A DNA stretch of 64,000 nucleotides from an uncultured Gammaproteobacteria bacterium (lineage in GTDB: Bacteria > Patescibacteriota > Patescibacteriia > CAZSQN01): assembly GCA_964609095.1 (NCBI GenBank), contig CAZSQN010000003.1, positions 12,687 to 76,686 on the forward strand, in the 5' to 3' direction. A program made the translations under genes and the position numbers. The notes below the pieces were generated by a model, which was given only the letters and a program-made list of their open reading frames with translations, was not told the DNA's origin and ran no database searches. This document shows, piece after piece, positions 3,648-32,713 of the stretch; position 1 is the first letter of the stretch; every line of letters begins with the position of its first letter.

Positions 3648-4178
3648 TTAAATATTCAAAGGCGGCAAGCCGAGAACGCGAAGCGCTTCTGGAAGAAGCG
3701 GCAGGAGCACTCTGGCAATTCCGATCAACCATCTCCCTATTTCCGACGGCCCGACAATTTTTTCCAAAAATACGGCAGAAACGGGAATCGCTCCGGCAAC
3801 ATGCAAAATAAGTCCCAGCACCAGCGCGCCTTCGGCAAATCCCAAAACGGCTCCGGCCAGCCGATTTATTGTTTTAAGAAACGGAATTATGGTCAGGATT
3901 TTAAATATCTTTTCAATTAAATAGAATACAAGCCCGACCAGGCGATTGACGATGGTAAAAACAATTATAAAAACAATAATTTTCCAAACGGGCAAACTGC
4001 CGCCAAATCTGCCGGAAAAAAATTCCGCGATGGAAGCAAAATAATGTCCGGCAACATAAGCCCCGGCAACGGTGCCGACTAGCGCGCCCAAAGTATGGAT
4101 AATACCGAACCAAAAACCAAAAAGAACAAACCCTCCAAGTATGATGAGCAAGATTATGTCAACAAAAGACATAAACAA
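3648..4178 (-). CDS. CvpA-family membrane protein.
   Basis: 176 aa with four TM helices. The N-terminal DIILLIILGGFVLFGFWFG pattern is typical of colicin V production protein CvpA. Confidence 0.5.
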   Translation of the reverse strand: MFMSFVDIILLIILGGFVLFGFWFGIIHTLGALVGTVAGAYVAGHYFASIAEFFSGRFGGSLPVWKIIVFIIVFTIVNRLVGLVFYLIEKIFKILTIIPFLKTINRLAGAVLGFAEGALVLGLILHVAGAIPVSAVFLEKIVGPSEIGRWLIGIARVLLPLLPEALRVLGLPPLNI

Positions 4179-4190
4179 AATATCTAATTT

Positions 4191-5711
4191 CTAATGACTA
4201 ATTTCTAATCTTGGAAAAAGCGCCGCGCCCTTTTTCACCTTGCTTCCCGGCTTTATCCCGCCCCATTTTTTGGCCGTCTCATAGCGCGAACTCCGCCAGG
4301 TCTTTCCAAAGCCAAGGTCTTTAAAAATTTTATCAGCCGTATCGGGTAAAAATGGCGCGACCATCCAAGCAATATTTCGGAGCGATTCAAGCAAGGTGTA
4401 GATAACTTTAGAGAGCCGTTTTTTGTCTATTTTGGCTAAAACCCACGGCTGCTCCGTATCAATAAATTTATCCAAAGCGCCGACCGCGTCCCAGATATCG
4501 GAGAGAGCCAAATCCAACCTTAAACTCCCCATATTCACTTCATATGATAGCCAAGTATGGGCAATCCTGCCAGTGGCGCGAGGCGGCACTATACCGCCAA
4601 AATACTTTTCGGCCATGCCTAAAATTCTGGCGGTTAAATTGCCTAAACCATTGGCCAGATCAGCGTTGTACCGCTCGCTCATCCTGTCGGGCGAAAAGTC
4701 CCCGTCGTTGCCAAACCCGATTTCGCGCAAAAGATAATAACGCAAAGCATCAACGCCAAACCGCGAAGTCAATTCAACCGGATTAATCGCGTTGCCCAGC
4801 GACTTGGAGATTTTCTCTCCGTCTATGGTAAAAAATCCGTGGGCAAAAACTTTTTTGGGAAGCGGCAATCCGGCGGAAAGCAGCATGGCCGGCCAAAGCG
4901 CGCAATGAAACTTGATAATATCTTTGCCCACCAGATGCAGGTCCGCCGGCCAATACTTTTGAAATTTTTTACCGTCTGCGCCGTAGCCAACCGCGCTTAA
5001 ATAATTGATAAGCGCGTCAAACCAGACATAAATCGCGTGATGTTTATCCTTTGGAAACGGAGTCCCGCATTTTGCCGAAGCGCGGGTAATGGAAATATCC
5101 TCCATAAAATTTTGGATATAACTCACTACCTCGTTTCGCCTGCTTTCAGGCGCGATAAAATCAGGATGCTTTTTAATGTGATTCAAAAGCGCTTTCCTGT
5201 ATTTTGACAGTTTGAAAAAATAATTTTCTTCTTTAATTTTTTCCGGCGGCTTTTTATGAATCGGGCAAAGCCCGCTTTCCAAATCCGATTCAGGCAAAAA
5301 TGTTTCGCATCCGACGCAGTACCAGCCCTCATAAGTTCCTTTATAAATATCCCCGCGCTTCCATACCACCTCAATAAACTTGGCGATCGCCTTTTTATGC
5401 CGCGTCTCGGTCGTGCGGATAAAATCGTCATTAGTCATTCCGAGCGAATCCCAGGTTTCCGCCCAAACCGCAGCCATTTCATCCAGATAACCTTTGATGT
5501 CCCCCTCTTTTCCCAATTTTTTGGCCGCTTCAATATTCTTTTGGCTGTTTTCATCCGTGCCAGTTAAAAAATTTACCTCAAAACCACGCATACGAAAGTA
5601 GCGCGCGAGCGCGTCTGCCGCGAACATAGTATAAGCGTGGCCAATATGCGGCTTGTCGTTTACGTAATAGATAGGCGTGGTGATGTAGAATTTTTTGGAA
5701 TTTAATGCCAT
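4191..5711 (-). CDS. metG: Methionyl-tRNA synthetase (class I, short form).
   Basis: TTPIYYVNDKPHIGHAYT (HIGH motif), KISKSLGN (KMSKS motif), and Cys-rich zinc knuckle CVGCETF...CPIHK. Confidence 0.92.
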   Translation of the reverse strand: MALNSKKFYITTPIYYVNDKPHIGHAYTMFAADALARYFRMRGFEVNFLTGTDENSQKNIEAAKKLGKEGDIKGYLDEMAAVWAETWDSLGMTNDDFIRTTETRHKKAIAKFIEVVWKRGDIYKGTYEGWYCVGCETFLPESDLESGLCPIHKKPPEKIKEENYFFKLSKYRKALLNHIKKHPDFIAPESRRNEVVSYIQNFMEDISITRASAKCGTPFPKDKHHAIYVWFDALINYLSAVGYGADGKKFQKYWPADLHLVGKDIIKFHCALWPAMLLSAGLPLPKKVFAHGFFTIDGEKISKSLGNAINPVELTSRFGVDALRYYLLREIGFGNDGDFSPDRMSERYNADLANGLGNLTARILGMAEKYFGGIVPPRATGRIAHTWLSYEVNMGSLRLDLALSDIWDAVGALDKFIDTEQPWVLAKIDKKRLSKVIYTLLESLRNIAWMVAPFLPDTADKIFKDLGFGKTWRSSRYETAKKWGGIKPGSKVKKGAALFPRLEISH

Positions 5712-5796
5712 AAGCTCATTTAATACAATCCTAATTCAGTATAACTTGTAATTTCCAAAATACCAAATTCCGTTTCGGTTCCTATATTCTGTAAAA

Positions 5797-5835
5797 TAGA
5801 ATAACAATTTTAAGCTATAGCTGATTTTTGTTATT
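5797..5835. promoter_or_regulatory. Nested-palindrome operator-like element AATAACAAAAATCAGCTATAGCTTAAAATTGTTATT in the metG upstream region (copy B).
   Basis: Central perfect palindrome AGCTATAGCT nested inside the inverted arms AATAACAA/TTGTTATT. It is near-identical to the copy at 6438-6474. Confidence 0.5.
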
Positions 5836-5862
5836 ATTTTTTAATTTCTTTATTGCTAACCT

Positions 5863-6432
5863 CTACTGACGATGGAGGCCAAATTTACGAACCAACCAAT
5901 AATCGCCGGGGAATCTCTCTGAGGTAAGATATATAATATTTCTTCTTAGACCATATCCGGTTCTCATAAGTTCGATCATCTGATCTGCGGAATAGGGGAA
6001 AATCCAGACACTGTCTTGTAGGCGAAAAAAACCTATAGAACGGAGGGTTTCCCGAGTCCTGTCTCGAAGAACCTTCCGCTTCTCCTCAACATCAAAAATA
6101 ACTATTCTCCACTTCTCATCCCATTTCTTTGGTCTTTTTAATTTTATCTGCTTGGCCTCAATCTGTTGCAGAAATTTGTATCCTTTTTCAGTTAGATTAA
6201 TAAATGTATGCGCGCTGCTAATTTTCTTGAACAAAATCCCACGAGCAACCAATCTATTTACTGTTTGGTTAATAATAGCGGTAAAACTCCCCTCCCTCCG
6301 TTCAAGAAACACCGGCCCAAGATGTTTAATCAGGTTCGGCGCAACAAAAGAAGCCGCGACCAAACCAGTTAATCCCACTGCTTTTATAACCTCTTTTGTC
6401 CATTCAATTCTTTCAATTCTTTTATTTTTCAT
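5863..6432 (-). CDS. Putative transcriptional regulator: N-terminal winged helix plus a C-terminal Cas2/VapD-like motif, resembling the PaaX-like architecture.
   Basis: The N-terminus INQTVNRLVARGILFKK...LTEKGYKFL looks like a wHTH. The C-terminus WRIVIFDVEEKRKVLRDRTRETLRSIGFFRLQDSVWIFP matches the Cas2 core pattern (hhhhYDV..RR..l...l...G.R.Q.SVF). The gene is flanked by identical about 35-bp nested-palindrome elements. Confidence 0.45.
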   Translation of the reverse strand: MKNKRIERIEWTKEVIKAVGLTGLVAASFVAPNLIKHLGPVFLERREGSFTAIINQTVNRLVARGILFKKISSAHTFINLTEKGYKFLQQIEAKQIKLKRPKKWDEKWRIVIFDVEEKRKVLRDRTRETLRSIGFFRLQDSVWIFPYSADQMIELMRTGYGLRRNIIYLTSERFPGDYWLVRKFGLHRQ

Positions 6433-6437
6433 AATAA

Positions 6438-6474
6438 CAATATTAAGCTATAGCTGATTTTTGTTATTGTCAAT
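6438..6474. promoter_or_regulatory. Nested-palindrome operator-like element (copy A) immediately upstream of the start codon of the wHTH gene. It overlaps a TTGACA-like -35 at 6475-6480.
   Basis: The sequence CAATAACAAAAATCAGCTATAGCTTAATATTGTTATT ends 5 nt before the ATG at 6432 on the minus strand. Same element as 5797-5835. Confidence 0.5.
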
Positions 6475-6489
6475 TTTTAAAATGACGGT

Positions 6490-7440
6490 CATTCTTTCTA
6501 TAATTAAAAAAGGGTCCAGCTTTTGGCCAGACCCTCGCGCCGACGAATCGGCTAATGTCACTTCGCCGAGAACGCGACCTTCATAGGACACCTCCTGGAT
6601 GAATGGTTTTTTCGTGAAAGAACGAAAGATGGGTGCGTGCCCGGAATCTAACAGGGATGTGTTTACATTACATTACACGCACCTTACCAGTAAAAACAGA
6701 GTGACTTAGCGTGCCTTATACGGCACGGCACCCGTCGAGGACGTCTCCTCTAACCGGATGAAGTCACGGACTTCGGGAACGTCGCGACGTCCCTGAAGTT
6801 GCCCTCCTGGACCCCGAGGCGGAACTCGGAGCGCTCCTTTGATTCGTTCCAGGCCATCGAGGACCTGGTAACGTCCGCTGCCCGTCCCCAACGCGTCAAC
6901 GCGTCAAGGACAGATTTTAAGGTTCTGGCGAACAGTGGGAAGTAAATCCCTAAACCATTCGTCAAAACCAGTGGAGCCGGGTGGAGTTGAACCACCATCA
7001 TCAACCTGGGCATCCTATATCCCATTAACAGGTATGCTGGCCCGTTAAGAGCTTACGCTCTGATTGATTTACCTCCCTTTAGGCGGCTCCTAAAAAGTGC
7101 TGGACTGAGTGAGATATTTGGGCGGTGAAGTTGGCTTCATTAAGGGAGAAGCCCAGTAGCCCATTTTGCCCGGTGAAGAGTTCCAGCACCAGTGCGACCG
7201 GAAGGATTTGAACCTTCACTCTCTGCGATTCCACTCCCCGTGATTCCCATTTGGGCGGAAGCCAGAGCGCAGCCCGTGCTCGGTCGCGACAACTTTGTGA
7301 AGAACTGCGGGGGGTTTTGTACTCTGGTCCAACCAGAGCCGAGGTTACTCTACCCCCCTAAATCACCTCACTTCTAACGGACAGGTTACCACAAACCCCA
7401 AAATCTGTCAAGCCCCACTGACAAAATTATGAATTTTCTC
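6490..7440 (-). ncRNA. ORF-free, GC-rich structured region: candidate ncRNA locus or loci of unknown class, containing two tRNA-like T-arm/acceptor modules. Possibly tmRNA-like or tRNA-like RNAs.
   Basis: There is no ORF above 91 aa on either strand across about 950 bp. The minus strand carries GGTGG-TTCAACT-CCACC-CGGCTCC-A (6969-6997), with a complementary GGAGCCG at 7083-7089. It also carries GAAGG-TTCAAAT-CCTTC-CGGTCGC-A (7193-7219), with a complementary GCGACCG at 7281-7287. Other structure includes a GNRA hairpin CAGAGC-GUAA-GCUCUG, a G6...C6 hairpin at about 7310-7355, and a minus-strand TTGACA-17-TAACCT promoter-like site at about 7384-7412. No canonical anticodon arm was found in either module. 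Confidence 0.4.
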
Positions 7441-7445
7441 TTCTG

Positions 7446-22781: not shown

Positions 22782-22848
22782 AGCGTATAGGGTTTAGGGT
22801 TTAGGGTTTAGGGTCACTAAACGCTGAACACTAACCGCTAAACGCTTT
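22782..22848. repeat. Telomere-like heptamer element: (TTTAGGG)x3.5 followed by CTAAACG-type heptamers.
   Basis: GCGTATAGGGTTTAGGGTTTAGGGTTTAGGGTCACTAAACGCTGAACACTAACCGCTAAACGC. Confidence 0.8.
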
Positions 22849-25160: not shown

Positions 25161-26663
25161 ATGATGACAAAAAAGCAAAAACACGTGCTCGATTTTATAA
25201 CCTTTCACCAAGAACGGGAAGGATATGCCCCTTCCCTTGATGAGATACGCAAGAAATTTAAACTTGCGTCTGTTTCAACTGCCCATTTCCACGTATCAAA
25301 ACTCCGCGATTTGGGTTATTTATCCAAAGAAGAAAATAAACCGCGAGCCATTGAAGCGCTTGGCCGCGAAACAATGGTAAAGATTCCGCTTTTAGGAACG
25401 ATCGCCGCCGGCCAACCTATTGAAGCAATTCAAGAAAAAGAGATAATCGCGGTTCCAAAAAGCAAAATTCCTTTTTCGTCAGAGGTTTATGCTCTCCGCG
25501 TAGTCGGAAGCAGTATGATTGACGAAAATATAAACGATGGCGATGTTGTTTTGGTGCGTCAACAGGAAACAGCCGAAAACGGACAAAAAGTCGTGGCTCT
25601 CATAGATAATCACGAAGCAACCTTAAAAAAATTTTACAGAGAAAACGGGTATATTCGATTACAGCCCGCAAACAAAACAATGGAACCGCTTATTTTTAGA
25701 AATGGGCGGGATGTTTCAATTCAAGGAGTTGTGCTGGATGTTATTCGTGATGGCGGTTTTGTGTCTCCGGTAGAAATTTATCCGGATGCAAAACTTCTTA
25801 ATCGAGAAAGAAAAGTCAAAAACCGAGAAGCAAAAGAAAGAACGCGCGGCGGCACAAAATTTCAGAAAGATGCCGTTATGGTTGCGCAAGCAGACGGTAT
25901 TGAAAAATTTACTAATAAAATTATTTGCGGCGACAGTGAAGAAGTTTTGCGTAAAATCCCAACCGGTTCAGTTGATATTATTATTACATCGCCTCCATAT
26001 AATTTTGGTCTGGAATATAAAGACGATAAGAAAAATGATGCGGTTCACTGGGACGAGTATTTTAAGAAGATAAACACAATTTGGAAGGAGTGCGCGCGTG
26101 TTCTAAAACCAGGCGGACGATTGTGCCTCAATGTACAGCCATTGTTTTCAGATTACATTCCGACACATCACCTGATGTCAAAACAACTACTCAATCACGG
26201 TCTTATATGGAAAGGCGAAATTTTGTGGGAAAAAAACAACTATAACTGCAAATATACCGCGTGGGGTAGCTGGAAAAGCCCCAGTATGCCATATTTGAAG
26301 TACACTTGGGAATTTGTTGAGATTTTTTCAAAAGATACGCACAAAAAAGTCGGTGACTCGTCAAAAGCCGATATTACTGGCGATGAGTTTAAAAAATGGG
26401 TTTACGCGAAATGGTCTATTGCCTCCGAACGAAACATGAAAGATTATGATCATCCCGCGATGTTTCCAAAAGAGTTAGCAACACGACTGATGAAACTTTT
26501 CAGCTATCAAGACGATATCGTACTTGATCCATTTAACGGCGCCGGCACAACAACACTTTGCGCCGCAGAAACCGGCAGAAAATATATCGGCATAGATATT
26601 TCGCCTAAATACTGCGAAATCTCTGAAAAACGAATTAAAGAAATTCCAGCGAAGTTATTTTAG
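25161..26663 (+). CDS. LexA-like repressor (wHTH plus S24 autopeptidase) fused in frame to a beta-class N4-C/N6-A DNA methyltransferase.
   Basis: Residues 1-205 form a complete LexA: an HTH, the AAGQP Ala-Gly cleavage site, GSSM serine and LKKF lysine. Residues about 245-500 form the methyltransferase: NKIICGDSEEVLRKIP...IIITSPPYNF (motif IV) followed by C-terminal DPFNGAGTT (motif I). This is the beta-class domain order. No stop separates the two domains. Confidence 0.75.
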   Translation: MMTKKQKHVLDFITFHQEREGYAPSLDEIRKKFKLASVSTAHFHVSKLRDLGYLSKEENKPRAIEALGRETMVKIPLLGTIAAGQPIEAIQEKEIIAVPKSKIPFSSEVYALRVVGSSMIDENINDGDVVLVRQQETAENGQKVVALIDNHEATLKKFYRENGYIRLQPANKTMEPLIFRNGRDVSIQGVVLDVIRDGGFVSPVEIYPDAKLLNRERKVKNREAKERTRGGTKFQKDAVMVAQADGIEKFTNKIICGDSEEVLRKIPTGSVDIIITSPPYNFGLEYKDDKKNDAVHWDEYFKKINTIWKECARVLKPGGRLCLNVQPLFSDYIPTHHLMSKQLLNHGLIWKGEILWEKNNYNCKYTAWGSWKSPSMPYLKYTWEFVEIFSKDTHKKVGDSSKADITGDEFKKWVYAKWSIASERNMKDYDHPAMFPKELATRLMKLFSYQDDIVLDPFNGAGTTTLCAAETGRKYIGIDISPKYCEISEKRIKEIPAKLF

Positions 26664-31484: not shown

Positions 31485-31952
31485 TTATTTACTTATTATT
31501 ACTTTTGCCGACCGCAATATCTCATTTTGATATTTATATCCGGCTTGTATTTCTTTTAAGATTGTTCCCGACTCTCCCCCATCCTCGCTTCCCGCAGCTT
31601 CATGCAAATTTGGATCAAATTGCTCTCCGACGCACTTCATTTCCTCCACCCCAAACTGCTTTAACAATTCCTCCAGCTCCTTTTTAATAAGCAGGACTCC
31701 GGAAACCCATCCTTTTTCCATATCTTCTTTTGGAATATGGGCCATTGCCTCGCGGAAATGGTCCAGCGACGGAAGGAACGAAAGAATCACCGTTTGCGCG
31801 CCATATTTTAAAGAATCTGCGGCCGCGCGCTCCATTTGCTTTTTCAGATTCTGGTAATCCGCCATCGCCCGCTTCCATCCCAAAAGATATTCTTCATTTT
31901 GTTTTTTTAATTGTTCTAAATCTGGTTGTGAATTGTTTTCTTCCATAGCCAA
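31485..31952 (-). CDS. grpE: Nucleotide exchange factor GrpE.
   Basis: Coiled-coil N-terminus. C-terminus GVEEMKCVGEQFDPNLHEAAG. Confidence 0.85.
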   Translation of the reverse strand: MAMEENNSQPDLEQLKKQNEEYLLGWKRAMADYQNLKKQMERAAADSLKYGAQTVILSFLPSLDHFREAMAHIPKEDMEKGWVSGVLLIKKELEELLKQFGVEEMKCVGEQFDPNLHEAAGSEDGGESGTILKEIQAGYKYQNEILRSAKVIISK

Positions 31953-32011
31953 AGCGTTTAGCGATTAGCGTATAGCGTTTAGTTTTTACCCTAAACCCTA
32001 AACGCTAAACC
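31953..32011. repeat. Telomere-like heptamer element (reverse orientation relative to 22782-22848).
   Basis: GCGTTTAGCGATTAGCGTATAGCGTTTAGTTTTTACCCTAAACCCTAAACGCTAAACCCTATACCC. Its reverse complement aligns with the 22782 element. Confidence 0.75.
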
Positions 32012-32713
32012 CTATACCCTTAAATCACGAAGCATCTTGCGCGCATAGGAAATTAATGAATAATTACGGTCGTAGTTCATCCGAAGCGAACCCAAGACCC
32101 CTAAAATTCCCGACTCGTCTCCGGTATTAAAACGGGTGACAATGGTTCCGCAGCGGTCTCCGAATGGGCTCTCATGACCGACCAAAATCTGGATGTTATC
32201 AGGAACAGTTCCCCAGAGCGCCGCCATCACTTCGTCCAGCTTGTCCATGATTTCGGAAAAATCGCGCATAAACGCGGCTTCGGCAAATTCCGGTTTGGCA
32301 AAAAGCGCGCCAAAGCCCGTTGAATAATAATGCCGGGGAGTTAGTCCGACGATCACGGCTTCGCCCGTATTTACGGCCAAAAACTTGGCCACTGATTTTA
32401 AAAGCTCTTCCCTGTCGTCTTCTTTGGCCGCTTTCTGCCTGAATTCTTCCAGTTGCTTAACCTTTGTCTGTTTGGGCGAAAGAAAATTTTGAATGTAATA
32501 ACGGTAGCCGGTTTCGGTGGGCACGCGTCCGGCGCTCGTGTGCGGCGCAACAATAAATCCCCCTTCTTCCAGCTCAGCCATATCATTTCTAATCGTTGCC
32601 GGAGACACGCCGAACCGATATTTCTGAACGATAAAATTGGAGCCGACCGGCTCTGCCGTCCGCACGTATTCCTGAACTATGGCTTTTAACAATTGCTCCT
32701 GGCGAGTATCCAT
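32012..32713 (-). CDS. hrcA: Heat-inducible repressor HrcA (short form).
   Basis: N-terminal wHTH LLKAIVQEYVRTAEPVGSNFIVQKY...SPATIRNDMAELEEGGFI. A CIRCE element lies immediately upstream. Confidence 0.85.
   Translation of the reverse strand: MDTRQEQLLKAIVQEYVRTAEPVGSNFIVQKYRFGVSPATIRNDMAELEEGGFIVAPHTSAGRVPTETGYRYYIQNFLSPKQTKVKQLEEFRQKAAKEDDREELLKSVAKFLAVNTGEAVIVGLTPRHYYSTGFGALFAKPEFAEAAFMRDFSEIMDKLDEVMAALWGTVPDNIQILVGHESPFGDRCGTIVTRFNTGDESGILGVLGSLRMNYDRNYSLISYARKMLRDLRV

Follow-up and report, generated by a model that had tools for sequence, protein, structure and literature searches.

The closest described relative of the system reported here is PaaX of Escherichia coli W (PDB 8a39; TIGR02277), in which an N-terminal winged helix is followed by a Cas2-like middle domain (PF20803). 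E. coli PaaX binds the long-spaced inverted repeat TGATTC-N27-GAATCA and represses its own promoter, Px, by steric hindrance (PMC9493321). We analysed a 64-kb stretch of contig CAZSQN010000003.1 (64,000 nt, hereafter the window), in which a 189-aa protein with a predicted winged helix and a Cas2-like domain is encoded upstream of metG. The gene is bracketed by two copies of a 36-bp element, the upstream site U and the downstream site D. We consider that gene and sites form a self-contained one-gene cassette encoding a minimal PaaX-type repressor with its own site at each end, a reading to which we assign a probability of about 0.6 and which draws on sequence comparison.

The two copies of the element, AATAACAAAAATCAGCTATAGCTTAA(A/T)ATTGTTATT, lie on the strand of the gene and differ by a single mismatch (A5809 in D, T6442 in U). 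Both are nested, the 10-bp palindromic core being separated by asymmetric spacers of 5 nt from outer arms of 8 bp. D is separated by 27 nt from the stop codon of the 189-aa gene and by 88 nt from the metG start codon (106 nt when measured from its centre). Such a repeat pair was never obtained by chance (0 in 100 shuffles). The scans for sites covered the whole window and about 8.5 kb per relative: the core AGCTATAGCT was found at two places only in the window, both inside U and D, and no weaker third site combining arms and core was detected in these 64 kb. A search of the exact element against the JGI metagenomes gave no match. An earlier note on this DNA, made from the letters alone, had described a nested palindrome of about 36 bp occurring twice around the gene, which agrees with our mapping. 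Its distances needed correction: U abuts the start codon (0 nt, not 5), and the gap between D and metG is shorter than the roughly 95 nt given. Nor is the element a generic repeat, the outcome that the note had named as refuting its reading.

Table 1. Positions of the cassette, its sites and its surroundings in the window.
Feature	Position	Strand	Description
Upstream site U	6433..6468	-	AATAACAA-AAATC-AGCTATAGCT-TAATA-TTGTTATT; 36-bp bipartite quasi-palindrome abutting the ATG
Downstream site D	5800..5835	-	Direct repeat of U with one difference (A5809)
-10-like hexamer TAATAT in U	6440..6445	-	Followed by 7 nt (TGTTATT) and the ATG at 6432; read from the sequence
-35-like ATAACA in U	6462-6467	-	16-nt spacer to the -10-like hexamer
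189-aa gene	5863..6432	-	Predicted PaaX-type winged helix (about residues 1-95) and Cas2-like PaaX_M domain (about residues 100-189)
metG (methionine-tRNA ligase)	4191..5711	-	Neighbour of the cassette, outside it
Terminator-like hairpin	6510..6536	-	Ends the upstream non-coding RNA region
Solo perfect 36-bp palindrome P3	7446..7481	.	ATATCACTTTTGACACGGCCGTGTCAAAAGTGATAT; core ACGGCCGT; directly after the rsmI stop codon

The Cas2-like domain of the protein was assigned to the Pfam family PaaX_M (PF20803, 'PaaX protein central Cas2-like domain') with an E-value of 3.3e-18 (66 bits against a cut-off of 24, residues 102-173). The Cas2 models, whose matches span residues 108-157, remained narrowly under their cut-offs (PF09827, 21.3 against 23.8; TIGR01573, 23.8 against 24.5), and the PADLOC Cas2 model matched at E 1e-5, also below its cut-off. 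The PaaX equivalog model TIGR02277 scored 44.3 bits against a cut-off of 264.55, and the PaaX_C effector domain gave no match in this protein, which stops at residue 189. No transposase or recombinase catalytic domain was found, with Pfam and NCBIfam returning PaaX_M and Cas2 only. For the N-terminal region there was no match to the Pfam PaaX N-terminal model at E <= 1, and the family profile aligned to residues 55-144 of 8a39 (E 0.005). The AlphaFold2 model (mean pLDDT 73.8; 85-91 in the C-terminal domain, below 50 for residues 23-45) comprises a winged helix and then a beta-alpha-beta-beta-alpha-beta domain (strand 107-113, helix 117-133, strands 136-139 and 142-145, helix 150-159, strand 166-172). 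When this model was compared to the PDB with Foldseek, the top match was E. coli PaaX 8a39 (E 5.5e-6, 179 columns), and lower matches comprised the PaaX-like regulators 3kfw and 3l09, winged-helix proteins and the Cas2 structures 5zyf, 2ivy and 3exc; a single-sequence search of the C-terminal domain against the PDB gave no match. Profiles and model thus uphold the domain assignment of the earlier note, a winged helix joined to a Cas2-like segment.

Residue conservation was computed over 231 members of the family (median pairwise identity near 37%). D105, D114, R123, Q139, S141 and P146 were conserved in 100% of them, and E117, R127, C149 and Y168 in 97%, 95%, 95% and 92%, respectively. D114 aligns with profile position 8, i.e. 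the catalytic Asp of Cas2 at the end of beta-1, and given the invariant Asp/Arg/Gln/Ser set the Cas2-like domain may have a nuclease or mobility role. The window protein has Ala at codon 149 (5986-5988), where 95% of the members have Cys (motif P-Y-x-C), and keeps every other near-invariant residue.

At E <= 0.001 a profile search recovered 6422 representative clusters of the family, formed at 50% identity, of which 1019 remained at E <= 1e-30; almost all have a length of about 190 aa. Scanning one genome per species yielded 283 confirmed loci, 80 of which were kept, and every one of these was titled as Patescibacteria or as an unclassified metagenome-assembled genome. We mapped palindromes around 82 family genes, in loci from Patescibacteria, searching for a CGRYCG or CTATAG core up to 200 nt upstream and 260 nt downstream of each gene. 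The core was present upstream in 74 and downstream in 77 of the 82 loci. Under a stricter definition of symmetric sites (at least 14 of the 22 arm positions symmetric), 49 upstream and 61 downstream sites were retained, and 44 loci had both. Elsewhere in the same loci only 13 symmetric cores occurred in 536 kb, and several of those flank a further family gene (L032, weaker) or represent extra copies (L037, L080). The spacing between U and D ranged from 597 to 814 bp (median 657), and the asymmetry of the spacers indicated direct repeats in 18 of 20 informative loci and another arrangement in two. In locus L037 four copies of that genome's own element (GGGGAATATAATGCGCGGTCGTG...TTATATTCCCC) were found within 1.5 kb (3780-5290), one upstream and three downstream of the family gene, separated by non-coding spacers of about 140-330 bp.

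The sites share a bipartite architecture. Counting from the dyad, positions 1-4 form a fixed core, R-C-K-R|Y-M-G-Y (GCTA|TAGC in the window), positions 5-9 an AT-rich spacer that is 55-65% symmetric, and positions 10-18 an outer half-site with 85-95% symmetry and 85-95% identity between U and D. The outer half-sites vary between genomes and match between both copies within one genome. We interpret this bipartite symmetry as that of a protein-binding site with two read-out modules, and not of a strictly conserved hairpin. Moreover, classes of the recognition helix pair with classes of half-site (RRISQA..RL with TGTTCC, RLRET.SR with TTGTTTAT/TGCTTA), and one recognition-helix class was found with either core type. 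Such pairing speaks for the encoded protein as the reader of the arms, although shared ancestry could produce it as well. The global correlation between half-site distance and protein distance was weak (rho 0.14-0.17). The alignment columns tied most strongly to core type include 116 and 140, in the Cas2-like domain, and this association too is confounded by shared ancestry.

U coincides with a predicted promoter, which in the window reads GCTATAGC-T-TAATAT-TGTTATT-ATG. Among the family loci, the distance from the centre of U to the start codon peaks at 16-18 nt, and 19 of 70 U sites have an in-frame start codon 16-19 nt from the dyad. Of 70 U sites, 17 had a -10-like hexamer at dyad offset +5 when read in the direction of the gene; the figure was 3-6 of 70 for the three controls, namely U in reverse and D in either direction (3 of 70 in D). 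The typical family sequence is core-(TG)TATAAT-7 nt-ATG. As this arrangement leaves no room for a ribosome-binding site, the mRNA of the 189-aa gene is predicted to be leaderless, with its first nucleotide at the ATG or adjacent to it. Autoregulation through the copy at the gene start, which the earlier note had suggested, is the best reading of this overlap and is well supported by comparison: U overlaps a predicted -10 box 7 nt before the start codon, and the long-spaced operator and self-repression of PaaX are a direct precedent both for the site architecture and for autoregulation.

D copies are often more symmetric than U copies and usually have no -10 hexamer. The gene after D was co-directional in 42 loci and convergent in 35 (n = 77). 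Downstream neighbours carried 93 Pfam families among 75 genes, none common to more than three, upstream neighbours were equally diverse housekeeping genes, and no conserved partner gene was found on either side of the family genes. Because D is present whatever follows and the neighbours are diverse, we assign it to the cassette and not to metG. Its function may be that of an auxiliary operator, of a roadblock where the cassette ends, or of an element end.

The intergenic position of the cassette was compared in seven related genomes, recovered through MetRS homologues of 77-87% identity, in which the order ThiI-RsmI-[X]-MetRS-CvpA-TatD is conserved. In the window the cassette is present between the terminator of the non-coding RNA and metG. 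In one relative (L088) it is inverted and its sites are turned with it (TTGTAAACAATATAAGCTATAGCAyryTTTGTTTACAA at 4237-4274 and 4889-4926); this is the only relative of the same synteny with a family gene by metG, and that gene points away from metG. The cassette is missing from five further relatives (L086, L090, L091, L092 and L093) and from L094, which has a different gene upstream of metG. In the relatives without cassette a TTGAAA-type -35, a -10 and metG come directly after the terminator. As terminator and promoter region adjoin metG there, they mark the interval of the insertion, and the window cassette lies between the ancestral metG promoter region and metG. The earlier note had mentioned a cassette with duplicated flanks as its second option, and the family-wide bracketing together with this pattern of presence and absence makes that the better description.

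The window and L088 cassettes share an extended core (AGCTATAGC) and have related half-sites (TAACAA and TAAACAA, respectively). Their proteins are 36% identical, against 60-81% for RsmI, MetRS, CvpA, TatD and ThiI, which gives a ratio of cassette to neighbour divergence of about 2.2; the ratio ranges from 0.8 to 3.3 among syntenic orthologue pairs. Two histories would fit: either an old cassette that diverged fast in place, with one inversion and several losses, or the independent arrival of related cassettes. No sequence more than 46% identical to the window protein was found among 5.8 billion sequences except itself, and its MetRS has relatives at 77-87%. Close orthologue pairs of the family mostly keep synteny; in particular, L041/L053 and L063/L070 are syntenic by tblastn.

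Site-like palindromes were also observed at places without a cassette. P3 has the family architecture (ACGGCCGT core, AT-rich spacer and 9-bp arms), with arms that differ from those of U and D, and folds as RNA at -22 kcal/mol. No family gene or pseudogene lies beside it, the window containing only one copy of the family gene, and P3 may be the solo remnant of a lost cassette or may belong to a paralogue whose gene lies elsewhere. In L086, one of the relatives without cassette, a 40-bp palindrome (ATGCCCGCTTAAATTTTGCGGGCAAAATTTAAGCGGGTAT, 4963-5002) abuts the metG start codon with 18 nt from dyad to ATG and resembles a family-type site minus two central bases. Concerning the promoters of metG itself, the -10 lies 6 nt before the ATG in L088 (4985-5003; TGATATAAT-TTAAAC-ATG) and in L090 (1075-1097; TAAAAT-AGCATT-ATG), and the metG-proximal -10 of the window (5712-5735) is poorer than in either of them. 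Given these short distances in the relatives, leaderless mRNAs may be frequent in this clade.

Under the reading that we favour, that of a self-contained autorepressor cassette, a dimer would bind the 36-bp site with its winged helices on the outer half-sites AATAACAA and TTGTTATT, 10-18 bp from the dyad, and the paired Cas2-like domains would rest on the AT-rich spacer and the conserved core. Protein bound to U would cover the promoter from the -35 to the start codon and shut off its own transcription. D would most likely serve as an additional operator, in many loci a more symmetric one, either reinforcing repression or keeping transcription from crossing the border of the cassette. As a whole the cassette is accessory DNA, and any effect on metG depends on where it landed; metG may be partly driven and repressed from D. 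Several observations weigh against this reading. The leaderless geometry (core, -10, 7 nt, ATG) is found in only about a quarter of the family U sites (19 of 70), and the -35 match in U (ATAACA) is weak. The distances between U and D show no 10-11-bp periodicity, thus no helical phasing, and D has no fixed relation to the downstream gene, with no constraint found on its distance to the next start codon. The set of invariant polar residues exceeds what dimerisation needs. Finally, a regulator whose only sites detected in the DNA scanned flank its own gene offers no obvious benefit to the cell.

Alternatively, the cassette could be an autonomous or semi-autonomous mobile or invertible element and its protein a nuclease or recombinase, an explanation that we regard as unlikely. 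The winged helix would then attach to the arms of both end sites, and cleavage or strand exchange at the conserved core would fall to the Cas2-like domain; the left end would overlap the promoter as in many insertion sequences, so that autoregulation would be a by-product. A gene bracketed by its own sites at 597-814 bp has about the size of an IS200 element, and presence, absence and inversion at one intergenic spot, with two copies so much more diverged than their neighbours, are consistent with movement. So are the contrast between the isolated window protein and its well-represented MetRS, the missing conserved neighbours, the invariant polar residues with an Asp at the Cas2 catalytic position, the four copies in L037, the solo palindromes P3 and that at metG in L086, and a cassette GC content 5-8 points under that of the neighbours. 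In L024 a 13-nt direct repeat (TATTGAATAATTA) lies outside both sites (about 3880-3895 and 4650-4665), 11 nt to the left of U and 6 nt to the right of D. However, L024 is the sole exception to a general absence of target-site duplications: over 44 loci the longest word shared by the flanks averaged 4.39, against 4.30 in shuffled pairs. Paralogues of the same genome are 33-52% identical, with no sign of recent copying, synteny is held in most close orthologue pairs, no known transposase or recombinase domain is present, and neither relatives in IMG/VR viral contigs nor a PHROGs match were found. The ends are direct and not inverted repeats, and the divergence ratio of the window and L088 cassettes falls inside the range of syntenic pairs, so that in-place divergence with one inversion and several losses fits as well.

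In its specific form, an unrecognised minimal mobile or invertible element of Patescibacteria with a winged helix/Cas2-like site-specific nuclease or recombinase acting on the C-K-R-Y-M-G core, we find the proposal slightly more doubtful still. If it were true, the Cas2 fold would have a role in DNA rearrangement beyond CRISPR, and the family would fall between the VapD/Cas2 nucleases and the PaaX repressors. A cassette that rearranges would leave the deletion junction AAAAATTGAC-AATAACAA...TTGTTATT-CTATTTTACAG and the circle or tandem junction AAAAAATAAT-AATAACAA...TTAATATTGTTATT-ATGAAAAAT. In Logan, four contigs from the cassette side (L002-L005) end at 5810 and those from the metG side (L095-L096) start at 5829, in several sequencing runs. 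These ends were considered as a circle or tandem junction and rejected, as the two sides overlap by 20 nt within the 26 nt that U and D have in common, most simply the result of an assembly-graph break at the repeat. Palindromic repeats of this type fragment assemblies.

The earlier note had proposed that the protein is a dedicated regulator of metG, one operator serving autoregulation and the second controlling the metG promoter. D does carry ATAACA-16-TAAAAT facing metG (5834..5807), the insertion separates metG from the conserved promoter region next to the terminator, and the metG-proximal -10 of the window is weaker than in L088 and L090. But D accompanies the family gene in 77 of the 82 loci whatever follows, even with the next gene convergent in 35 of them, and the -10 at offset +5 is rare in D sites. 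The cassette is absent from six of the seven relatives, the only other family gene by metG in the same synteny points away from it, and the protein has no effector domain to sense methionine or tRNA status. A dedicated metG regulator is therefore not plausible, and we hold a designed role of D in metG control to be improbable; if metG is controlled at all, this would be a local by-product of the insertion. The TAAAAT of D makes an incidental influence on this gene plausible.

The protein could also be a toxic ribonuclease, i.e. a Cas2/VapD-like domain in a fused, autoregulated toxin-antitoxin-like or defence module, in which the palindromes keep expression very low. Accessory spread and paralogues with their own operator specificity are typical of toxin-antitoxin modules, and this family is likewise accessory in its distribution, a genome carrying several paralogues whose operator specificities differ. 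Cas2 is related to VapD, both being nucleases, and the Cas2 signature residues are preserved in the family. We nevertheless consider this explanation quite improbable, given that there is no partner gene, that PADLOC matches Cas2 models only, that the cassettes lie among housekeeping genes and not in defence islands, and that the second, downstream site is left without explanation.

Finally, that the palindromes work at the RNA level, as hairpins that terminate or insulate transcription on either side of the gene, instead of binding protein as DNA, can be rejected as very improbable: near-perfect palindromes of 36-48 bp do occur in many genomes, some U/D differences are compensated in L047, L048, L051, L026 and L057 and P3 folds at -22 kcal/mol, but the hairpins of U and D in the window are weak (-6.7 and -7.3 kcal/mol, z -1.6 and -2.5, with a 5x5 internal loop), compensated changes at spacer positions are a minority across the family (5-7 against 20-28 uncompensated), a start at the ATG would leave the upstream copy untranscribed, and the sites are specific to this gene family and not a general terminator type.

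The autorepressor cassette that we favour is of interest for several reasons. Patescibacteria have tiny genomes with few recognisable regulators, yet this family is large, and nearly every member examined has a paired bipartite site and no conserved partner, so that it offers a compact, testable protein-DNA pair for an uncultured phylum. The pair predicts how the site is organised, the winged helix reading variable half-sites and the Cas2-like dimer covering a conserved core, and the family points to leaderless promoters in Patescibacteria. The comparison also corrects a tempting over-reading, namely regulation of the adjacent aminoacyl-tRNA synthetase gene. If the invariant Cas2-type residues were catalytic, the family would reveal what such a domain does outside CRISPR and bear on the old question of why active-site residues are retained in Cas2.

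Three other features of the window were recorded. Between rsmI and the cassette lie about 970 nt without open reading frame (6469-7445, minus strand; GC 0.50-0.56), which are kept in the relatives with or without cassette. This region has its own TTGACA-17-TAAYCT promoter, the terminator listed in Table 1 (6536..6510) and two tRNA-like modules, each with a 7-bp acceptor stem and a T arm (about 7285-7190 and 7095-6970), followed by a Shine-Dalgarno sequence and an 8-codon open reading frame (MKVAFSAK). Rfam gave only sub-threshold tmRNA matches for it (E 0.0015) and ARAGORN none; the region probably encodes a structured RNA that is undescribed or highly divergent. Further along, a pair of inverted repeats of about 67 bp (22782-22848 and 31951-32020; 88-94% complementary, heptamers of the TTTAGGG / TAAACGC type) brackets about 9.1 kb with grpE, dnaK, a miaA-like gene, dnaJ, a YibE/F protein and a LexA-methylase fusion, hrcA lying just outside the right arm. 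The last gene inside this segment to be named, a 500-aa open reading frame on the plus strand (25161-26663), combines LexA DNA-binding, S24 peptidase and N6/N4 DNA methyltransferase domains, so that a self-cleaving repressor of the SOS type is joined to a DNA methylase, which is unusual.

Among known systems, type II antitoxins and controller C proteins likewise have a palindromic operator over their own promoter, diverged paralogues and a scattered distribution as accessory modules. They differ from the cassette in their fold and in their partner toxin or enzyme gene, the cassette being a single gene with a second operator downstream. IS200/IS605 and REP/RAYT elements resemble it as units of about 0.65 kb with one small gene, palindromic ends in the same orientation, a left end over the promoter and an accessory distribution. 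The cassette, however, has no HUH/tyrosine transposase motif, shows no multi-copy spread within a genome or within the 64-kb window, lacks target duplications save at one locus, and has a bipartite, operator-like symmetry.

With Cas2 and VapD the protein shares the ferredoxin-like beta-alpha-beta-beta-alpha-beta fold, the invariant Asp at the end of beta-1 and a Q-x-S-V-W/F motif. Cas2 dimers bind duplex DNA in the Cas1-Cas2 complex. Differences are the fusion to a winged helix, the lack of cas1 or a VapX-like partner, and scores just under the curated cut-offs; no CRISPR array was found in the window either. Despite fold and signature, therefore, this is not a CRISPR Cas2.

PaaX remains the closest comparison. 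The operator architectures are alike at the level of sequence (TGATTC-N27-GAATCA in PaaX, AATAACAA-N20-TTGTTATT here), and the cassette would work like a PaaX-type autorepressor without being PaaX, as it has neither the effector domain, nor the paa context, nor an equivalog score. PaaX has 316 aa and ends in PaaX_C, unlike the 189-aa protein, whose gene has no paa genes nearby but rsmI, the non-coding RNA region, metG, cvpA and tatD. The conserved central core of the operator and the second site behind the gene are found here and not in PaaX, and this family is limited to Patescibacteria in the loci recovered. In the literature library that we could search, no paper linked PaaX with Cas2 or with Patescibacteria, nor mentioned PF20803/PaaX_M in this context. 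The combination of winged helix and Cas2-like domain is already catalogued; what appears to be new is that this family retains the Cas2 signature (FD...R...R...Q.SVW) that E. coli PaaX has lost.

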